Source of the DNA: Candidatus Daviesbacteria bacterium GW2011_GWA1_41_61
Lineage (GTDB): Bacteria; Patescibacteriota; Microgenomatia; Daviesbacterales; UBA10151
Assembly: GCA_000997385.1 (NCBI GenBank)
Contig: LCBT01000003.1
Span: 128,892-192,891, forward strand
Direction of reading: 5' to 3'
Length of the DNA stretch: 64,000 bases
Position numbers and translations under genes: made by a program. The first letter of the stretch is position 1. Every line of letters starts with the position of its first letter. Positions 2,892-61,986 of the stretch are shown piece by piece. The notes below the pieces were generated by a model. The model made no database searches. It saw only the letters and a program-made list of their open reading frames with translations, and was not told the origin of the DNA.

Positions 2892-3941
2892 ATGGCTAAG
2901 GCAGATCGTTTAAAATTAATAGCTTCCTTAGAGAAAGCAAGAGGTTCTAAGGTTATTTCTTATATTGGAGCAACAAGACAAGGGATCGGGTATGAAATGT
3001 CGCAATTAGATATAAGGATAATTTACGATCATCTTTACCAAATAAAAAAGAAGGAAAAAATTGATTTGCTGATCAATAGTTTTGGTGGAGATGTTACCTT
3101 TGCTTGGAGATTAGTTCATCTAATTAGGGAATTTTCGAGCGAGTTTAATGTTTTAATTCCGCTTCATGCTTTTAGTGCTGCTACCCTTATAGCCCTTGGG
3201 GCAGATTCCATAGTTATGCTTCCTGGATCATGTTTAGGTCCAACCGATCCACAGTCACGTAATGTATTTAACCCCTCAGAAGGTGCAAGTAAATTGCCTA
3301 TTCAAGTAGAAGATATTGCTTCTTACATAAATTTTCTAAAAGAGGATTTTGGTTTAAAAAGTGAATCTAGCTTCGTTGAATCTCTCAAGTTACTTTCACA
3401 GTCCGACAACAGGATACACCCCTTAGCTCTTGGTGCTTCTAAAAGGGGATCCCAATTAGCAAGACGGTATGCTCAAGATTTATTAGGTCTTCATATGAAG
3501 AAAAATAGCGATAAAGAAAAGATCACAAAGATAGTCGAAATGTTTAGTTCTAAACTTCTTGCACACGATCATCCAATAAATAGGGATGAGGCAGGGAAAT
3601 ATGGTTTAAAGATAAAGAAAGAGAAGCCAGAAATAGAAGGTTTAATTTGGGAACTATTTAATAAATATGAGGTTGAATTACAACTTGATGAGTTCTTTAG
3701 TCCAATAACAGAGTTTAAGAAAGTACAACCAAACATTCCACTCTCTCTAGGTAATCAATTACAACCAAAAGTAGAAGAAATATCTGTAGAATTAGCTGTT
3801 ATTGAGAGTGTTGAATATACTGATGTGAACAGTCAAGTCTTACAGGTGCAAGGATTAAAATTTCTTGATGGTTCTGGTAATATTAACGAGAATTATAGTT
3901 GGATTACCAAAAAGCAGGATTGGGAAAGACAAACAACTTAG
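2892..3941 (+). CDS. ClpP/crotonase-fold serine peptidase of the SDH ('serine dehydrogenase proteinase', S49-like) type
   Basis: ORF track. LLINSFGGDVTFAWRLV ... PLHAFSAATLIALGADSIVMLPGSCLGPTDPQ parallels the ClpP/SppA 'INSPGG ... AAS(M)G ... MIHQP' core, with the catalytic Ser in the SAAT context. The local sequence looks more AT-rich (AGA/ATA/TTA codons) than core genes, judged by eye. Confidence 0.55.
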   Translation: MAKADRLKLIASLEKARGSKVISYIGATRQGIGYEMSQLDIRIIYDHLYQIKKKEKIDLLINSFGGDVTFAWRLVHLIREFSSEFNVLIPLHAFSAATLIALGADSIVMLPGSCLGPTDPQSRNVFNPSEGASKLPIQVEDIASYINFLKEDFGLKSESSFVESLKLLSQSDNRIHPLALGASKRGSQLARRYAQDLLGLHMKKNSDKEKITKIVEMFSSKLLAHDHPINRDEAGKYGLKIKKEKPEIEGLIWELFNKYEVELQLDEFFSPITEFKKVQPNIPLSLGNQLQPKVEEISVELAVIESVEYTDVNSQVLQVQGLKFLDGSGNINENYSWITKKQDWERQTT

Positions 3942-16435: not shown

Positions 16436-17059
16436 ATGATCCTGCCAAATTTTACAGCCAGTGGTATTAAGAGACTAATTATTTTTACCGTAGCGGCGGT
16501 TATTGCCGGAGAGATAGTTTGGGCAGGTTGGGTTTTAACTCAGCCGGCAGTTAAAGTTGACCGCAAAGATGTCCCTTCAAAAGCTGCTAAGGATGTTATC
16601 AAACCAGTTTCTTTGGCGAAAGTTTCTTTAACTACTCCCCAAAAAACTGTCAAAGTTGGCCAAACTGTTCCGGTAACGATTAATATTTCTTCTTCTAAGC
16701 TCTCTGACGGAGCGGATTTGATTATCTATTATGACAGTAGACTGCTAACCGTAGTTACCTCTGGTAAACCAGCCGTACCGGTAACTGCGGGCAACGTTTA
16801 TCATGAATATCTTTTTAATGATCTGGATGAGAAGGCTGGGGTTATCTCTGTCTCAGCTGTTAACAGAAGGGGTGAGGCAACATTGGCTCGGGGGATATTT
16901 GGTCTAATTAATTTTAAAGCCAAAGCAGTCGGTCAGGCCAAGGTGGCTTTTGATTTTACCACCTTGGGGAATACCCGGGATTCTAATGTTATTGAGTCCA
17001 AAACTACTAAGGATCTGTTGGGAGAGGTTGAAAACCTGGAGGTAAATATCTTACCATGA
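16436..17059 (+). CDS. Membrane-anchored protein with cohesin-like domain
   Basis: ORF track. An N-terminal TM/signal anchor is followed by KTVKVGQTVPVTINISSSKLSDGADLIIYYDSRLLTVVT...GVISVSAVN...ATLARGIFGLINFKAKAVGQAKVAFDF. This fits the cohesin pattern 'G.tV.VPV......gi...d..i.YD...L......g......f.......g.i......... g.la.i.Fka...G...v.f'. Confidence 0.6.
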   Translation: MILPNFTASGIKRLIIFTVAAVIAGEIVWAGWVLTQPAVKVDRKDVPSKAAKDVIKPVSLAKVSLTTPQKTVKVGQTVPVTINISSSKLSDGADLIIYYDSRLLTVVTSGKPAVPVTAGNVYHEYLFNDLDEKAGVISVSAVNRRGEATLARGIFGLINFKAKAVGQAKVAFDFTTLGNTRDSNVIESKTTKDLLGEVENLEVNILP

Positions 17060-17757
17060 AGACAATGATCAAATTTAAGCTTTGGCATGTTTTGACTCTG
17101 ATATTACTTATCACCGGTAATCTATCGCTTATTGCTCTCCCTGCCTTGGCTCAAACGGCAAGCTTGTCTTTATCTCCGGCTTCCGGAACATTTAACCAGG
17201 GATGTACTTTCTCGGTTGAGATTAAGGTTGACACCGGAGGGAATCAAACAGATGGAACTGACGCCATCCTTTTTTATGACCCAACCCGCTTTACCGCTAC
17301 CGATATCAGAAATGGTACTGTTTATCAAAGTTACCCCCAAAGTAATATTTTTGATAGTGAGGGGAAAATTGCCATTGCCGGAGTAGCCTCTGTCAGTTTG
17401 CCTTTTCAAGGGGTTGGGACTTTGGCGACGATTGACTTTAAAGTAACTGATACAGCTCCTACCGGAGTCAGCCAAATCAAGTTTGATTTTGATCCTAATG
17501 ATAAGGAAAAAACCAGTGATTCCAATATTGTTGACCGGGCGACGACCTCGGATATTTTAAGTAAAGTCAGTAGTGGCAGCTATACAGTGGGAACCGGAGC
17601 TTGTAGTAAGGCAGTCAAACCTGTAGGTGGAGTTACAGATACTGATAAAGTAGCGCCTACCCTACCTCAGTCCGGGGCTTTTGAAAACACTTTAGCTTTA
17701 GCAGTGGTGGGCAGCGTCTTGATTTTAATTGGCATATTGGGGCTGCTACTGCTTTAA
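17056..17757 (+). CDS. Cell-surface protein with cohesin-like domain, signal peptide and C-terminal LPQSG plus hydrophobic anchor
   Basis: ORF track. The signal peptide is MKTMIKFKLWHVLTLILLITGNLSLIALPALAQ. The cohesin-like core is ASGTFNQGCTFSVEIKVDTGGNQTDGTDAILFYDPTRFTATDIRNGTVYQS...GKIAIAGV...GVGTLATIDFKVTDTAPTGVSQIKFDFD. The C-terminus TLPQSGAFENTLALAVVGSVLILIGILGLLLL is an LPxTG-like motif plus a TM, but it lacks a basic tail. Its start overlaps the stop of the 16436 gene by 4 nt, which suggests an operon. Confidence 0.6.
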   Translation: MKTMIKFKLWHVLTLILLITGNLSLIALPALAQTASLSLSPASGTFNQGCTFSVEIKVDTGGNQTDGTDAILFYDPTRFTATDIRNGTVYQSYPQSNIFDSEGKIAIAGVASVSLPFQGVGTLATIDFKVTDTAPTGVSQIKFDFDPNDKEKTSDSNIVDRATTSDILSKVSSGSYTVGTGACSKAVKPVGGVTDTDKVAPTLPQSGAFENTLALAVVGSVLILIGILGLLLL

Positions 17758-56430: not shown

Positions 56431-58257
56431 ATGGAACCCGAAAAAACCCCGACAAAGAAATTTGATCAAATTAAAGAGACCGCTACAGTCTCCTGGAAAC
56501 TTTTAAAGCTAGTCTGGCAGGTTGACCGCTGGCTTTTTATAGGTTCAGCTACTGCCTCAATTTTGCCAGCCATAATACCTTTTATAAATTTCTACATCTA
56601 TAAATTAATTATTGATTTGGTAGTAGCTGTAGTTTCCCAGGGGGTACCAATAGATTTTAATCGGCTCTACCTGCTTATTGGACTTCGAGTTGTAACCTAT
56701 TTTGTTTTAGATGTTACCTTTAGAACCCAAGAGTTGATGGAACGTTTATTTTGGACTAAGGTACCAATTTATCTTAATGAGAAGATCTTTCAAAAAACGG
56801 TCAATTTGGATATCCAGTATTTTGAGGATAGTAAGTTTAAGGATCTCTTAGAAAAAGTTAGGGACAGTGTTTCCTGGAGGCCTCAGCAATTAGTTTCCTA
56901 TTTATTTATGGGAGCTCAGAGTTTGGTTCAGGTAATAATTGCTTTTATTGCTATCGCCAATCTTAACCCTTTCTTAGTACTTTTGATTGCTTCAGTGGCT
57001 GTCCCAGAATTTATTAATCAAACACAACAGTCAAAGCTCTCTTGGGGTATCTGGGAGAGAAATTCACCTTTTAGGAAAAAGTTTTGGTATTTATCGGGAC
57101 TATTACAACATGCCTGGACTATCAAGGAGGTAAAAATATTTCGATTAGCCAAAAAGTTTCTTGACGAGATTAGATCTATTCAGGAAAAATTTTACCTTGA
57201 TAATGCCAAGCTTGCTAAACGCAATTATGGTTTAAATTTGATTTTTAATGCGCTCTCGACAGCAGTTTTTATTGGCTTTGAAATCTTTGTGATCTTTGAA
57301 GCTCTAGCCAGAAGAATTACCATTGGAGACGTTAATTTTTATACCGGAGTGGTTTCTAATTTCCAAAGCGGGTTAGGAGGTCTATTTAGGAATATGACTG
57401 GAGTGTTTGAAAACAGCCTTTATATTAAAAGTATGTTTGATATTTTGGAAGCTAGACCTAAAGTGGTACAGGCGGAGAATCCTCAAAAGCTAACCTTAAG
57501 GAGGACTCCCCTTGTTGAATTTAGAGATGTTACTTTTGCCTATCCTGATTCTAAACAGAAAATATTAAAAAACTTTTCTTTAACTATAAACCCAGGAGAA
57601 AAAATTGCTTTGGTAGGCGAAAACGGGGCTGGAAAATCAACAGTTATTAAGCTTTTAGTGAGGTTTTATGATGTCCAGGAGGGGGGAATCTTCATTGATG
57701 GTATTAACTTGAAGGATCTTGATTTAGAGGATTGGTACCGGCATGTAGGAGTTTTATTCCAGGATTTTAATAAGTATGAACATACAGTAACAGAGAATAT
57801 TGGGTTTGGTAAGGCCTTTGAGGAGGTTAATGTTGGAGAAGTTATTCGGGCAGCTACCTCTGCTGGAGCACACCCAATGATCCAAAAGTTAGACCAAGGA
57901 TATCAGCAGATGCTAGGAAAAACATTTGAAGGTGGAGTTGATTTGTCTATTGGGCAGTGGCAGAAGATTGCTTTAGCACGGGCATTCTTAAGAAATGCTC
58001 CAGTTTTGGTTTTGGATGAACCTACCGCTTCAATTGATGCCAAAGCTGAATCAGAAATTTTTAACAGGGTGGAAAGGTTGTCTCACGATAAAACAGTCAT
58101 TATCATCTCTCACCGGTTTTCCACTGTCAGAAATGCTGACAAAATTTATGTCATAGATAATGGTAAAATTGTGGAATCTGGCAGCCACAGTGATCTGATG
58201 AAGGTTGACGGCCAGTATGCCACCCTTTTTAAACTTCAAGCCAAAGGTTACCAGTAA
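56431..58257 (+). CDS. ABC transporter, fused permease/ATPase (type I exporter, MsbA-like)
   Basis: ORF track. Six N-terminal TM helices are followed by Walker A GENGAGKST, the signature LSIGQWQKIALARAF, and Walker B VLVLDEPTASID. Confidence 0.9.
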   Translation: MEPEKTPTKKFDQIKETATVSWKLLKLVWQVDRWLFIGSATASILPAIIPFINFYIYKLIIDLVVAVVSQGVPIDFNRLYLLIGLRVVTYFVLDVTFRTQELMERLFWTKVPIYLNEKIFQKTVNLDIQYFEDSKFKDLLEKVRDSVSWRPQQLVSYLFMGAQSLVQVIIAFIAIANLNPFLVLLIASVAVPEFINQTQQSKLSWGIWERNSPFRKKFWYLSGLLQHAWTIKEVKIFRLAKKFLDEIRSIQEKFYLDNAKLAKRNYGLNLIFNALSTAVFIGFEIFVIFEALARRITIGDVNFYTGVVSNFQSGLGGLFRNMTGVFENSLYIKSMFDILEARPKVVQAENPQKLTLRRTPLVEFRDVTFAYPDSKQKILKNFSLTINPGEKIALVGENGAGKSTVIKLLVRFYDVQEGGIFIDGINLKDLDLEDWYRHVGVLFQDFNKYEHTVTENIGFGKAFEEVNVGEVIRAATSAGAHPMIQKLDQGYQQMLGKTFEGGVDLSIGQWQKIALARAFLRNAPVLVLDEPTASIDAKAESEIFNRVERLSHDKTVIIISHRFSTVRNADKIYVIDNGKIVESGSHSDLMKVDGQYATLFKLQAKGYQ

Positions 58258-58354
58258 TTAGTACAAAAGATATCAAAAACAGTCAAAAATAATTTGATGG
58301 TTGAGTTTGTCTTTACAAGGTTTAAATTTGCAAAATTAGCCTCAAAATTTTTAG

Positions 58355-58383
58355 TTGACAAAGTTTTTAAATCTTTCTATATT
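58355..58383 (+). promoter_or_regulatory. Near-consensus sigma70-type promoter TTGACA-N17-TATATT, immediately upstream of the CAP-domain protein gene
   Basis: Seen directly. The -10 ends 8 nt before the GTG start at 58392, which implies a leaderless or very short-leader mRNA, or a different true start. Confidence 0.4.
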
Positions 58384-58391
58384 CAAAGTCT

Positions 58392-59006
58392 GTGACTTTT
58401 ACGTCTGCCATATTAGCCACACTTTTATTGCCTTTAGGGTTTTTCAGCCATCTATCCGGCCTGATAATTAAACCGGCTTCTACTCCTCCTCCTAAACCAA
58501 AGATTATTTTAACAACTGCCTCTGAGCCTGTGTACGATATTACCTTTGAAGTTATCTCTACCCCAACTGCAACGGTGACCCCTACTCCTACTGTAAAACC
58601 TACCTCCTCCCCCACTCCTAAACCTACTTCTCCCCCTCCTCCACTAACCTCTGGTTCTTCTGTCCAAGATTACCTGATGCAGGAGATTAATAACTATAGA
58701 AGATCCCAAGGATTATCTGAAGTTAAAACTGATTCTTATACTTGTGATTTTGCAGCTATAAGAGCCCAAGAAATCTCTTCAGCTTTTAACCATGACGGCT
58801 TTAGCAATAGGTTGAGTAGTAAGACTCTCCCCTACCCCAGTTATAGTGTAGTAATAGAAAACCTGGCCAAAATTTCTGATTACCAGAAAGTGGTTACTTT
58901 GTGGATTAATTCCTCCGGCCATGCTGCCAATATGAGGAAAGATACCCCCTTTGTTTGTGTGGCTCAAAACGGCAACTTCTTTGCTTACGAAGGCTTCAAA
59001 CCGTAA
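58392..59006 (+). CDS. Secreted CAP/SCP/PR-1-like domain protein with Pro/Thr-rich linker
   Basis: ORF track, GTG start. A hydrophobic N-terminus is followed by a PT linker (TPTATVTPTPTVKPTSSPTPKPTSPPPP). The CAP core is YLMQEINNYRRSQGL...HDGFSNRL...WINSSGHAANM. Confidence 0.7.
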   Translation: MTFTSAILATLLLPLGFFSHLSGLIIKPASTPPPKPKIILTTASEPVYDITFEVISTPTATVTPTPTVKPTSSPTPKPTSPPPPLTSGSSVQDYLMQEINNYRRSQGLSEVKTDSYTCDFAAIRAQEISSAFNHDGFSNRLSSKTLPYPSYSVVIENLAKISDYQKVVTLWINSSGHAANMRKDTPFVCVAQNGNFFAYEGFKP

Positions 59007-60285
59007 AATCAACGCTGATGCCTTTTCTGTCTACATGCTGCCAAAAGCAACGCTTTTGGTTAATGCTTTGGGAAAGTTTAGGTAAATTGATTAAAGCTTT
59101 GATTAAAGCCACATATTCTACAAAACTTAATAAATAGAAAAAGATATACATGGTGGGAGAAATTAACAATAATTTGATTTTGTCTTTTTTCCCTAATGTT
59201 TCTTCAGCTAGAATATTTATGCCGATATAGGCAGAGATAACAGTATAAGCTGAGATAAAGGTAAAAGTGTCTTTAAAAATAAGGATTACCAGCAGAATAT
59301 AGCCTGCCAAAAACGGTTCTAAAAAGAAGGCAAAATCACAAAAGATCGCAAATGGTAAATAAAAATAGGTCAAAAGCCGGCTATATTTTTGATCAGAATT
59401 AAAAAACATATTTTTATTTTTGAAAAATGTCTGACTTCTTCCCCATTTCCAACGATAACGCTGTTTAATCAGGGCGCCTATTGTTTGACAACTTTCAGTA
59501 TAGGCTATTACATCAGCTCCATAAATTACCCGGTAGTGTTTATTGCCTTTTTGTAAGATTTTCATGGTTAAATCAATATCTTCAGTAACGGTGTCGTGAT
59601 CGTAAAACCCAACCTTTTTTAAAATGCTTTTTCTAAATACTGAACCGATTCCGCCGATAATATATTCAATGTTAAAAGTAGTTTGAGCTCTCTTCATTTG
59701 GTAGCAGATTAAATATTCAAATTTTTGAATTAAGTTTATCAAGCTGTTATCATCGATAATTTTGACATTAGAAGATAAGGCTGCGACTTTTTGATCTTCA
59801 AAATATTGGGCAGCGTAAGTCAAAGCATTTTTTTCTAAATAAGAATCACCATCAAGGCACATTACCAGTGATCCTTTAGTATAGTTTTTTATCCCCTTAT
59901 TTAAAGCATTAGCCTTACCGGAATTTTTTTGTCTAATTAACTGTAAATTCAAAAGCTTGTTTTTTTCTTTAAATTTTCTAACCAAATTAGGGGTATGGTC
60001 AACTGATCCGTCATCAATCACAATAATTTGCAGTTTACTTTGAGGATAGTTATTAGAAGCCACAGAGCTGAGGCAGCGGATAATCGTTTTTTCTTCATTA
60101 TGGGCGGGAATAACGACGCTAAGTAACGGCTTATAGAGCTTCTTTTTGCTTTGGGTAGATTTTTTTTGAGCAAGATGTTTTTTAAGCCCATAAATATCAG
60201 AGCCGATAAGAAAGATCATCATTCTCAACAGATTAACAATACCCAAAAAAACAATTAGATAGCTAATAAAAGATAATATTTTCAT
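58996..60285 (-). CDS. Processive family-2 glycosyltransferase (PgaC/IcaA/cellulose-synthase-like)
   Basis: ORF track. LLSVVIPAHNEE, IIVIDDGSVDHT and GKANALNKG are present. The DGD motif is CLDGDSYLE, ED sits in TVTEDIDLTMK, and QRYRWKWG is the Q(R/Q)xRW motif. It has several TM helices. Confidence 0.8.
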   Translation of the reverse strand: MKILSFISYLIVFLGIVNLLRMMIFLIGSDIYGLKKHLAQKKSTQSKKKLYKPLLSVVIPAHNEEKTIIRCLSSVASNNYPQSKLQIIVIDDGSVDHTPNLVRKFKEKNKLLNLQLIRQKNSGKANALNKGIKNYTKGSLVMCLDGDSYLEKNALTYAAQYFEDQKVAALSSNVKIIDDNSLINLIQKFEYLICYQMKRAQTTFNIEYIIGGIGSVFRKSILKKVGFYDHDTVTEDIDLTMKILQKGNKHYRVIYGADVIAYTESCQTIGALIKQRYRWKWGRSQTFFKNKNMFFNSDQKYSRLLTYFYLPFAIFCDFAFFLEPFLAGYILLVILIFKDTFTFISAYTVISAYIGINILAEETLGKKDKIKLLLISPTMYIFFYLLSFVEYVALIKALINLPKLSQSINQKRCFWQHVDRKGISVDFTV

Positions 60286-60887
60286 ATGACTTTTAAAAAG
60301 TCGAAATACATCAACCTTCGTTTACTGTTTAAAAACCCGCTGCAAGTCATTAAAGTCAGCTGGGGTTTACCTTGATAACGAAAAATTTCCATGTTTTCCG
60401 GTGCGACTTCCTCATATTCTCTGTATCTATATTCAAAAATCAAATTATTCTTGGTATAAATTAAAACTTTATCTCCTATCTTTATCCTTTTTAAGGATCC
60501 GAATAAATTATCCGTGTTGTGGGCATAAATTAAGGTATTACCGGAGAAATTATTTGGCCGGGAAGTCACTTCGGCAAAATAGGCATCAACCGGAGAAATA
60601 TCCCAAACTTTAGTGTTAAGATTATATTTTCCGGGTTTAATATTGGCCTTTATTCCTACCGCAGGCACCTCTATCGCTGAAGGGTCCCCTAGTAAATAGT
60701 TTGTTTGGGGTAGAGAAGGCTTCCGACTCTCTGATAAAGATAAAAATCCCAGCCTTTCGTTTATCTGAGACTGCCTTCCCCCCCAAAAACTTCTTGTTTG
60801 AATAACAAAATAGCCTATCATTAAAACTACTAATAGATAGGCCGGTAAGAGCTTGAGAATAAGCGAGGTTCTATTTAAATTGATCAT
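60282..60887 (-). CDS. Sortase (transpeptidase)
   Basis: ORF track. It has an N-terminal TM anchor. LGDPSAIEVPAVGIKANIKPG, the His in NTLIYAHNTDN, the catalytic QLTLMTCSGF (TLxTC) and the downstream KRRLMY (Arg) are present. Its 3' end overlaps the GT2 gene start by 4 nt. Confidence 0.8.
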   Translation of the reverse strand: MINLNRTSLILKLLPAYLLVVLMIGYFVIQTRSFWGGRQSQINERLGFLSLSESRKPSLPQTNYLLGDPSAIEVPAVGIKANIKPGKYNLNTKVWDISPVDAYFAEVTSRPNNFSGNTLIYAHNTDNLFGSLKRIKIGDKVLIYTKNNLIFEYRYREYEEVAPENMEIFRYQGKPQLTLMTCSGFLNSKRRLMYFDFLKVI

Positions 60888-60891
60888 TTTT

Positions 60892-61074
60892 CTATATGAC
60901 TCTTTTTAATACTCGAGTCACTATAAAACTAATTAAAACAATAGAACCAGTAGCTATGGATGCAAAAGATAAAACCATGGTTAGGGGTTCATTACCGGTA
61001 TTTGGTAAGACAGCTGCACCGCCAGCTAAAGCCACAGAGGCACCTAAAATTTGTCCTGTTGTACTCTGATACAT
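60892..61074 (-). CDS. 60-aa LPNTG 'mini' sortase-substrate-like protein (short N-terminal segment, LPNTG, TM helix, basic tail)
   Basis: ORF track. MYQSTTGQILGASVALAGGAAV-LPNTG-NEPLTMVLSFASIATGSIVLISFIVT-RVLKRVI is a full cell-wall sorting signal. A strong Shine-Dalgarno AAGAAAGGAGGAGGAT lies immediately upstream of the ATG. It is 4 nt from the sortase start. Confidence 0.5.
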   Translation of the reverse strand: MYQSTTGQILGASVALAGGAAVLPNTGNEPLTMVLSFASIATGSIVLISFIVTRVLKRVI

Positions 61075-61254
61075 GATATCCTCCTCCTTTCTTTTTTAAC
61101 TTCAGCCGGGCAGAAGAAGACTGAACAACGAATAATAACATTTTTTCAGCTTATAGTCAATCACTATAACATAAACTATTTTAGAAATTTCCCTCTTTTT
61201 GAAAACATTACTTCTCTTGACTGTCTTTTATGGCTTCAGGTAAAATGTGCTGTT

Positions 61255-61986
61255 ATGGATATTGAGATTGCTGCAGAAACTATTGGACATATCGGTTCTT
61301 TCCCGATTACTAATTCCCTTTTAGTAACTTTAGCCACTACCGGGATTCTTTCTGCCCTGGCTGTAATATCTTCCCGGAAAATTACCCCCATACCTTCTTC
61401 TTTACAAAATTTTTGGGAATTTATAATCGAAGCGATTTATAACTTAAGCGAAGAGATTGCCCATTCTAGAGCTAAAATCTTTTTCCCTTTTGTGATGACT
61501 TTTTTCCTGTTTATTATTACCGCTAACTGGCTAGGACTTCTCCCAGGTTTTGGGACTGTTGGCTTTAAAGAAGTTCATGAAGGGAAACAGGTTTTTGTGC
61601 CCCTTCTTCGTTCAATTAATGCCGACTTAAATACTACCCTGGCTTTGGCTGCAATTTCAGCTGTAGCCACCCACTTTTTTGCCCTCAAATATTTAGGAAT
61701 TTGGCAGTATTTAAAAAAGTGGTTTAGCCTAAACCCTATATTTTTATTTGTGGGAATATTGGAGTTGGTGGGAGAATTTACTAAACTCATCTCGCTTTCT
61801 TTCAGGTTATTTGGTAATATATTTGCTGGAGAAATTGTTTTGGCAACAATTGCGGGGATTTTTGCTTTTGTTGTTCCTCTCCCCTTTTATTTTTTAGAAA
61901 TAATTGTTGGTTTTATCCAAGCGGCAGTATTTATGATGCTGACGCTTGTCTTTATGGCTTTGTTATCTGAAAAACCCGGGCATTAA
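61255..61986 (+). CDS. atpB: F0F1 ATP synthase subunit a
   Basis: ORF track 61051..61986. The likely start is MDIEIAAETIGHIG at 61255. LSLSFRLFGNIFAGEIVL contains the essential Arg. Confidence 0.85.
   Translation: MDIEIAAETIGHIGSFPITNSLLVTLATTGILSALAVISSRKITPIPSSLQNFWEFIIEAIYNLSEEIAHSRAKIFFPFVMTFFLFIITANWLGLLPGFGTVGFKEVHEGKQVFVPLLRSINADLNTTLALAAISAVATHFFALKYLGIWQYLKKWFSLNPIFLFVGILELVGEFTKLISLSFRLFGNIFAGEIVLATIAGIFAFVVPLPFYFLEIIVGFIQAAVFMMLTLVFMALLSEKPGH

Follow-up and report, generated by a model that had tools for sequence, protein, structure and literature searches.

In this work we analysed 64,000 nucleotides of Candidatus Daviesbacteria bacterium GW2011_GWA1_41_61 (contig LCBT01000003.1, positions 128,892 to 192,891 of the forward strand; this whole stretch is called the window below), and within it three tightly packed genes that the open reading frame (ORF) listing and the sequence place on the minus strand of window positions 58996-61074. 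They encode, in this order, a 60-amino acid (aa) protein that is little more than an LPXTG sorting signal (the mini-protein), a sortase, and a processive membrane glycosyltransferase of family 2 (GT2). Sequence conservation indicates that the 60-aa ORF is a real gene, that its product is a predicted sortase substrate without cargo, and that it belongs to a mini-LPXTG family found across the Candidate Phyla Radiation (CPR). The conserved linkage of the mini-gene, the sortase gene and the GT2 gene points to an undescribed route of building or anchoring a surface glycan. We propose, with a probability of about 0.5, that the dedicated sortase attaches the N-terminal peptide of the mini-protein to an amine of the envelope, within the biogenesis or anchoring of an exopolysaccharide (EPS) of the poly-N-acetylhexosamine (poly-HexNAc) type. 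The features discussed are listed in Table 1.

The sortase gene starts 4 nucleotides (nt; AAAA) past the stop codon of the mini-ORF, and the ATG of the GT2 gene overlaps the sortase stop codon by 4 nt (ATGA). Coordinates and sequence thus agree with the original prediction, made from the letters of the window, of a minus-strand trio with 4-nt gaps or overlaps, and the strong Shine-Dalgarno (SD) sequence that it ascribed to the mini-ORF is indeed there. The promoter-like site further upstream is so called from its match to the consensus, which does not imply function. The divergent neighbour of the operon is atpB; no riboswitch or other known RNA was found in 58000-61600, and no intrinsic terminator was found at the locus. 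The operon is present, with identical proteins, in at least seven independent assemblies of the same Daviesbacteria species.

The mini-protein and its family

The mini-protein reads MYQSTTGQILGASVALAGGAAV-LPNTG-NEPLTMVLSFASIATGSIVLISFIVT-RVLKRVI, i.e. 22 residues, LPNTG, one transmembrane (TM) helix and RVLKRVI, which is the near-bare sorting signal that had been predicted. Residues 1-22 are uncharged and rich in Gly, Ala, Ser and Thr, with no passenger and no basic n-region; the pentapeptide occupies residues 23-27 and is followed by a hydrophobic helix and a basic C-terminal tail, the layout of an LPXTG sorting signal. The stretch around the presumed T|G cleavage site is GGAAVLPNTGNEP. Kyte-Doolittle hydropathy gives a single TM segment at residues 34-52, as anticipated, within a helix of about 30-53. 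The AlphaFold2 (AF2) prediction for the family is a helix-loop-helix, with an N-terminal helix of low confidence (predicted local distance difference test, pLDDT, 54-62), LPNTGNE in a loop and a TM helix of good confidence. Library scans with the window protein and its relatives found no Pfam or NCBIfam family that covers the mini-protein: the window protein has no Pfam match and reaches 10.1 bits on TIGR01167 (cutoff 15.9), and its relatives stay below threshold on LPXTG-anchor models (16.7-16.8 against 20). Some database entries tag members of the family as 'LPXTG cell wall anchor domain-containing protein'.

Used alone as a word-index query, the mini-protein sequence retrieved only itself, and a profile built from 15 mini-proteins was needed to recover the family. 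This profile matched 112 protein clusters, every one of them 51-82 aa long and none long. A canonical LPxTG is present in about 90% of the family (LPFTG in 36, LPATG in 23, LPNTG in 17), and every member has a [Y/T]-G-[Q/K]-(V)-L-G-type motif in its N-terminal part, a Tyr, Ser or Thr among the first six residues and two to four Lys or Arg in the last 12. The N-terminal part, in which Gly, Ala, Val, Thr and Ser abound, is 11-29 residues long (mode 16). L23 is invariant, and G7, G11, G19, P24, T26 and G43 are conserved at 90% or more. Pairwise ratios of non-synonymous to synonymous substitution rates (dN/dS) for the mini-ORF are 0.05-0.25, that is, the ORF is under purifying selection, and between the same pairs of loci the mini-protein has diverged about as much as the sortase catalytic domain and the GT2. 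It is because the family is conserved, and not the motif alone, that we take the mini-protein to be more than a chance motif.

These observations bear on the possibility that the ORF is not a gene, being either a chance ORF or the leftover C-terminal fragment of a large substrate that has decayed. Such an origin would account for the likeness of the N-terminal motif to the segment that precedes LPXTG in some large substrates encoded beside related sortases, in locus L023 (...TGQVLGVSTLAGTG) and locus L037 (...GGGQVAGAAVTQLPKTG); among large CPR substrates generally, a GQVLG segment was found in just 2-3 of 5 examples. It is at odds with the small size of all 112 homologous clusters, with the dN/dS values, with the strong SD or leaderless-type start found in relatives and with the unchanged recurrence of the protein in independent assemblies, and we regard it as exceedingly improbable; as far as the sequence data reach, the all-small family and the dN/dS values rule out a pseudogene or a fragment. 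The mini-ORF is neither frame-disrupted in relatives nor fused there to a larger substrate, the two outcomes that the original prediction had named as speaking against it. The motif shared with large substrates suggests that the mini-protein may derive from an extended sorting signal. A reading of the ORF as an upstream ORF or leader peptide was also ruled out, the conservation being at the amino acid level and including LPxTG.

Conservation is not uniform along the protein. Within the more diverged subfamily (n = 18), the N-terminal peptide and the motif have mean pairwise identities of 0.43 and 0.57, compared with 0.25 for the TM segment and 0.26 for the tail. A constrained N-terminal peptide and a membrane remnant that is the least constrained part match what is expected of an acyl donor that the sortase would carry off. 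In subfamily 2 the TM helix is conserved to the same degree as the remainder of the mini-protein. Why the N-terminal peptide should be so strongly conserved is not explained if the mini-protein acts as a decoy or a sensor, that is, as a cargo-less substrate that titrates the sortase or whose cleaved C-peptide reports sortase activity. Streptococcal C-peptides offer a precedent for such reporting, and a protein without cargo whose gene lies directly 5' of the sortase gene could serve this purpose, yet the neighbourhoods show no recurring two-component or other sensor genes, and we consider this explanation highly unlikely.

The mini-ORF lies directly 5' of the sortase gene in at least 15 further loci, found in an alignment-based scan of genomes and metagenomes and with scripts; a contig scan with a single sortase query had returned nothing, and the alignment-based rescan returned five loci. 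The two nearest relatives of the sortase (P0003 and P0004, 35-38% identical), from Saccharibacteria-like genomes, are encoded in cassettes together with a 63-aa ORF and a GT2, and the small proteins of these cassettes share the architecture of the mini-protein (e.g. MTDGTTIGTVIGSSAVLAASTVALPYASGSVGK-TM-...). Many of the relatives' mini-ORFs have no SD, and a TATAAT-like box ends about 6-8 nt before their ATG (e.g. gatataatacggcaATG), which suggests leaderless transcripts; in the window and in the subfamily-2 loci, a strong GGAGG precedes the mini-ORF instead.

The sortase and the synthase

The second gene encodes a sortase by its match to PF04203 (64.7 bits against a cutoff of 26.6; E 9e-18 on Pfam Sortase). 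The catalytic residues that had been read from the sequence are in place, in IYAHNT (H123), TLMTC (C182) and RR (190-191), and three alignments show H123, C182 and R190/R191 as invariant or conserved in 90% or more. The AF2 model, built with 61 homologues, has a mean pLDDT of 89.8 and comprises a TM helix (7-35), a flexible linker and a beta-barrel (66-201), which together form the eight-stranded barrel with an N-terminal membrane anchor of a sortase. From this confident model and its sortase fold, the enzyme looks active. Its assignment to a class failed, and of the classification that had been called for only the sortase family stands: none of the models for classes A-F and GN (NCBIfam NF033745-NF033748 and related) comes near its cutoff, the best score of the window sortase being 33 bits (class C, cutoff 160) and the sortases of seven relatives reaching at most 44 bits (cutoffs 140-166), and Foldseek matches the model about equally to class A and class C (E ~1e-9), so that neither the NCBIfam scores nor the structure search separated the classes.

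A fold as near to the pilin-polymerising class C sortases as to class A is one point in favour of a mini-pilin or self-ligating peptide, in which the peptide would be polymerised head to tail or through Lys5, or cyclised, to give a thin fibre or a cyclic peptide. Also in keeping with polymerisation, 86 of 115 N-terminal peptides contain a Lys or Arg, mostly the Lys of a conserved YGKG. However, Gln replaces this Lys in the window protein and in all of subfamily 1, the mini-protein lacks a pilin domain, and the GT2 and the deacetylase described below would be left without a role. We therefore think this very unlikely.

An exhaustive profile search retrieved 4116 representative proteins at E < 1e-3, which indicates a large sortase lineage, in agreement with the report that more than half of CPR genomes have sortases (PMC6744442). 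In a rough neighbour-joining tree of the sortase domains the module sortases fall in one large clade, without a clean module-only clade, since sortases encoded beside large substrates (L033, L034 and L037) nest among them. Three other features of sortases in the collection may be mentioned here. In the close homologue P0075 the catalytic Cys is replaced by Lys (TILTKHG), and this protein may be an inactive paralogue. Locus L023 (1-728) has tandem sortases, the first of which is encoded after a large protein whose C-terminal end is ...PPPPPPVTGQVLGVSTLAGTG and a TM segment, while the second has the mini-gene and the GT2 gene; judged from this arrangement, the two look like a pair of housekeeping and dedicated paralogues. 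Finally, a distinct clade of CPR sortases has, 5' of the sortase gene, a conserved Cys-rich ORF of 46 aa, MPKECRECGT(S/T)TTCTECRGRGYYSGFFVAGR.C.HCKGTGKCP.NE, that looks like a zinc-finger motif; these loci have neither a mini-LPXTG gene nor a GT2 gene.

The third gene matches PF13632 and PF13641. The proposal of a processive synthase with QRYRW is well founded, as QRYRW (residue 275) is accompanied by DDGS at 91, DGD at 145 and TED at 234, and by TM segments at 10-28, 304-322, 326-344 and 372-390 (one N-terminal and at least three C-terminal). The protein thus combines the GT-A domain, the D, DxD, TED and QxxRW motifs and the C-terminal TM segments of processive membrane GT2 enzymes. Its best match is PgaC/IcaA (TIGR03937), with which it aligns over the full length (its residues 20-420 against positions 11-406 out of 407 in the model); residues 53-368 can in addition be aligned to BcsA, and its second-best NCBIfam match is the XrtG-associated GT2 family (TIGR03111, 120 bits). 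In eight loci a secreted deacetylase of the NodB type (PF01522), which has CBM_4_9 or Big_7 domains, is encoded divergently 5' of the mini-gene; the best NCBIfam match of the deacetylase is the holdfast deacetylase HfsH, and it also weakly matches the deacetylase family of the XrtA system. The best hidden Markov model match of the GT2 and the NodB-type deacetylase of its relatives suggest that the polymer is poly-HexNAc-like. The module GT2 occupies two separate reading frames in three lineages. For the L008 lineage, three independent assemblies agree on the split, which is therefore probably real, reflecting decay or a split gene. Where the GT2 is split, the sorting motifs are also the most degenerate (LPYASG and LPAAI/SKATG).

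Linkage of the three genes and a proposed route

The GT2 gene adjoins the mini-gene and the sortase gene in all 19 loci that have enough flanking sequence, in three arrangements (Table 1), which is the outcome of the comparison of synteny across relatives that had been suggested. The mini-gene is always co-directional with the sortase gene, and in seven loci the GT2 gene is on the other strand. An adjacency that outlasts rearrangement argues for a functional link. Beyond the three genes, murC adjoins the cassette in L008 and L011, and in subfamily-2 loci a 506-aa fusion of an N-terminal helix-turn-helix (HTH, Xre-type) domain and a MurA-like (UDP-GlcNAc 1-carboxyvinyltransferase) domain is encoded beside the GT2.

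Since the mini-gene and sortase gene always lie beside a PgaC/IcaA-like GT2 gene, and often near a NodB/HfsH-like deacetylase gene, we propose a role in poly-HexNAc-type EPS biogenesis. In the route that we infer, the C-terminal helix of the mini-protein would insert in the membrane with its basic tail inside, as in the Pf3 coat protein, leaving the N-terminal peptide and LPNTG exposed on the outer face. The co-translated, membrane-anchored sortase would then use H123, C182 and R190/R191 to cut LPNT|G and, through a thioacyl intermediate, move the 26-residue peptide to an amine of the envelope. The GT2 would make a poly-HexNAc-type EPS, which in many lineages the neighbouring deacetylase would de-N-acetylate, and the peptide would link or anchor the glycan covalently to the wall. 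Two kinds of acceptor can be envisaged: lipid II or peptidoglycan, in which case the glycan would be joined to the peptide, or the free glucosamine amines that the deacetylase would create on the glycan. The more specific statement that the peptide, of about 20-26 residues, is ligated to free glucosamine amines of a partly de-N-acetylated EPS, or anchors a glycan borne by its conserved N-terminal Tyr, Ser or Thr to peptidoglycan, is put forward tentatively and we would call it doubtful. Were it true, CPR/Patescibacteria would carry a covalently peptide-linked, holdfast-like adhesive glycan, with the mini-protein as its dedicated linker peptide, and the sortase would make a product never described for this enzyme family.

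Several observations do not favour attachment of the peptide within EPS biogenesis. The mini-protein has no Sec-type signal peptide, so that export of its N-terminus is an assumption, and the AF2 model of the mini-protein family is equally compatible with a hairpin whose N-terminus is inside. Some relatives have degenerate motifs (LPYA[AS]G, LA[NT]TA, LPAAI/SKATG, LPNIN), and related sortases of the same clade adjoin ordinary large substrates without a GT2. The GT2 scores 184.7 bits on TIGR03937 and misses the equivalog cutoff of 422.3 bits, and a tblastn search found no NodB-type deacetylase in the window. Lastly, we know of no natural sortase that has a glycan amine as acceptor.

The same linkage can be accommodated in two other ways. 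In the first, the peptide is ligated to peptidoglycan (lipid II) alone, for instance as a short hydrophobic decoration of the wall, and the GT2 and deacetylase are merely co-regulated. A canonical LPxTG and the usual catalytic residues make this the default acceptor, and the proximity of murC or a murA-like gene in several lineages fits with it. Co-regulation alone hardly explains, however, an adjacency kept in 19 of 19 loci through three orders and two strands, and it is not evident what a 20-residue peptide would do by itself; we consider this alternative unlikely. In the second, the mini-protein is a small membrane subunit or regulator of the synthase, analogous to IcaD or PgaD, which the sortase matures or inactivates, the Gly-TM-tail part being the active form. 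The constant presence of a PgaC/IcaA-like GT2, the conservation of G43 in the middle of the TM segment at 90% or more, the well-conserved TM helix of subfamily 2 and the position of the mini-gene directly before the GT2 gene in Saccharibacteria-type loci would all be expected of a subunit. Against this, the TM segment and tail are the least conserved parts in the diverged subfamily (0.25-0.26 against 0.43-0.57 for the N-terminal peptide and motif), the mini-gene keeps its direction with the sortase gene even where the GT2 gene is on the opposite strand, and IcaD and PgaD are different proteins, with two TM helices and no sorting motif. A subunit role thus also seems improbable to us, and attachment of the N-terminal peptide to an envelope amine remains the reading that we prefer.

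Table 1. Positions of the features of the window and of homologous loci (L numbers); unprefixed positions are those of the window
Feature	Position or loci	Strand	Basis or remark
Promoter-like TTGACT-17 nt-TATTAT, extended TG	61132..61160	-	~57 nt 5' of mini-ORF start; 10/12 consensus
Shine-Dalgarno AGGAGG	61083..61088	-	8 nt 5' of mini-ORF ATG
Mini-LPXTG gene, 60 aa	60892..61074	-	ORF, motif, TM, family profile, dN/dS
LPNTG codons	60994-61008	-	residues 23-27 of mini-protein
Membrane-anchored sortase, 201 aa	60282..60887	-	PF04203, alignments, AF2, Foldseek
Processive membrane GT2 synthase, PgaC/IcaA-like, 429 aa	58996..60285	-	Pfam, NCBIfam, motifs, TM segments
QRYRW codons of GT2	59449-59463	-	residue 275
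Secreted CAP/SCP-domain protein, 204 aa, Pro/Thr-rich linker	58392..59006	+	PF00188
Order mini, sortase, GT2	window, L018, L019, L020, L021, L023, L029, L060, L061		
Order mini, GT2, sortase	L008, L011, L012		
Order mini, sortase, GT2 on opposite strand	L026, L028, L030, L062-L065		
HTH-MurA-like fusion	L062:7922-9442, L063:6114-7634, L065:4899-6419		NF006873, 325 bits
TATAAT-like box	L018:3540-3570, L020:110-140, L061:4975-5000, L029:200-225, L023:785-810, L019:420-445, L008:4505-4532		
Split GT2	L008:4741-6008 (also L009, L010, L013); L012:3507-4780; L032:729-2002		
Cys-rich ORF, 46 aa	L014:1118-1258, L024:~3560-3700, L035:~670-810, L036 (5' of sortase at 3881)		

Comparison with known systems, and other genes of the window

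A literature search found no description of the module, and a preprint on a CPR 'Pam' pilus is unrelated to it. The module belongs to none of the systems with which we compared it, being a true sortase/LPXTG pair that has a cargo-less substrate and an unclassified sortase. The 'class GN/marine' sortase and its single neighbouring target likewise place one sortase beside one substrate, with the same three-part signal (pentapeptide, TM, basic tail) and the catalytic His, Cys and Arg. Known dedicated substrates are, however, full-size domain proteins with a signal peptide, whereas here the substrate is a sorting signal plus about 20 residues, and the window sortase and its relatives are outside the curated classes, none of them exceeding 44 bits where the cutoffs are 140-166.

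There is a published link between sorting of the transpeptidase type and EPS loci (PMC1569441). In the PEP-CTERM/exosortase (EpsH) and XrtG systems a sorting enzyme is, as in our module, tied genetically to EPS synthesis; here the enzyme is a true sortase (PF04203) and the motif LPNTG rather than PEP, so that the likeness is functional alone, and moreover the carriers are CPR bacteria without an outer membrane and the substrate is a single cargo-less peptide. The module would be a Gram-positive-style counterpart of the exosortase/EPS systems. In Actinomyces oris a glycosylated LPXTG protein, GspA, is anchored to the wall by sortase (PMC6381275). The GspA-LcpA-SrtA system follows the logic proposed here, in which an LPXTG protein first acquires a glycan and sortase afterwards fixes it to the wall, but GspA is of normal size and is glycosylated by an LCP enzyme, whereas here there is a processive synthase and no LCP gene in the neighbourhoods.

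The icaADBC and pgaABCD operons likewise pair a small membrane protein with a GT2 of the PgaC/IcaA type, to which ours can be aligned along its full length, and Caulobacter HfsH is the best match of the relatives' NodB-type deacetylase. The differences from ica and pga are that the window GT2 is far under the equivalog cutoff, that there is no IcaC, PgaA or PgaD, that LPXTG is present in the small protein, which is accompanied by a sortase, and that the window has no deacetylase. As for topology, the Pf3 coat protein is also very short and lacks a signal peptide; about 20 residues form its N-terminal tail, and a single TM segment and a basic C-terminus follow. The analogy would concern topology alone, and in most relatives of the mini-protein the N-terminal tail contains a Lys.

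The accepted role of sortases is to display folded proteins or to link them into polymers. More than 100 conserved cargo-less substrates that come with their own sortase and a glycan synthase, and often with a deacetylase, suggest another use of this chemistry, in which a short peptide is attached. The carriers are CPR/Patescibacteria, in which sortases are unusually common (PMC6744442) and about whose surface biology and host-cell attachment little is understood. The module also marks a gap in annotation, as the peptide lacks a curated family and the sortase a class.

Two other loci of the window had been connected with the module. The gene for the secreted CAP-domain protein (32.3 bits on PF00188, cutoff 21.1) had been described as divergently transcribed; it is in fact convergent with the GT2 gene, the 3' ends overlapping by 11 nt. 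It was rejected as a member of the module, as CAP homologues adjoin the module in the same species only. Within that species the gene is strain-variable, being split in L002 (5134-5875) and present as a 238-aa variant in L003 (5074-5790), with an identical operon. Elsewhere in the window, 16436-17757 on the plus strand holds two tandem overlapping genes for cohesin-domain proteins (PF00963). The second protein (17056-17757), which had been suggested as a further substrate, does end in LPQSG and a hydrophobic segment, and lacks the basic tail; its ending appears from the sequence to be an atypical sorting signal, and the protein is possibly another substrate.

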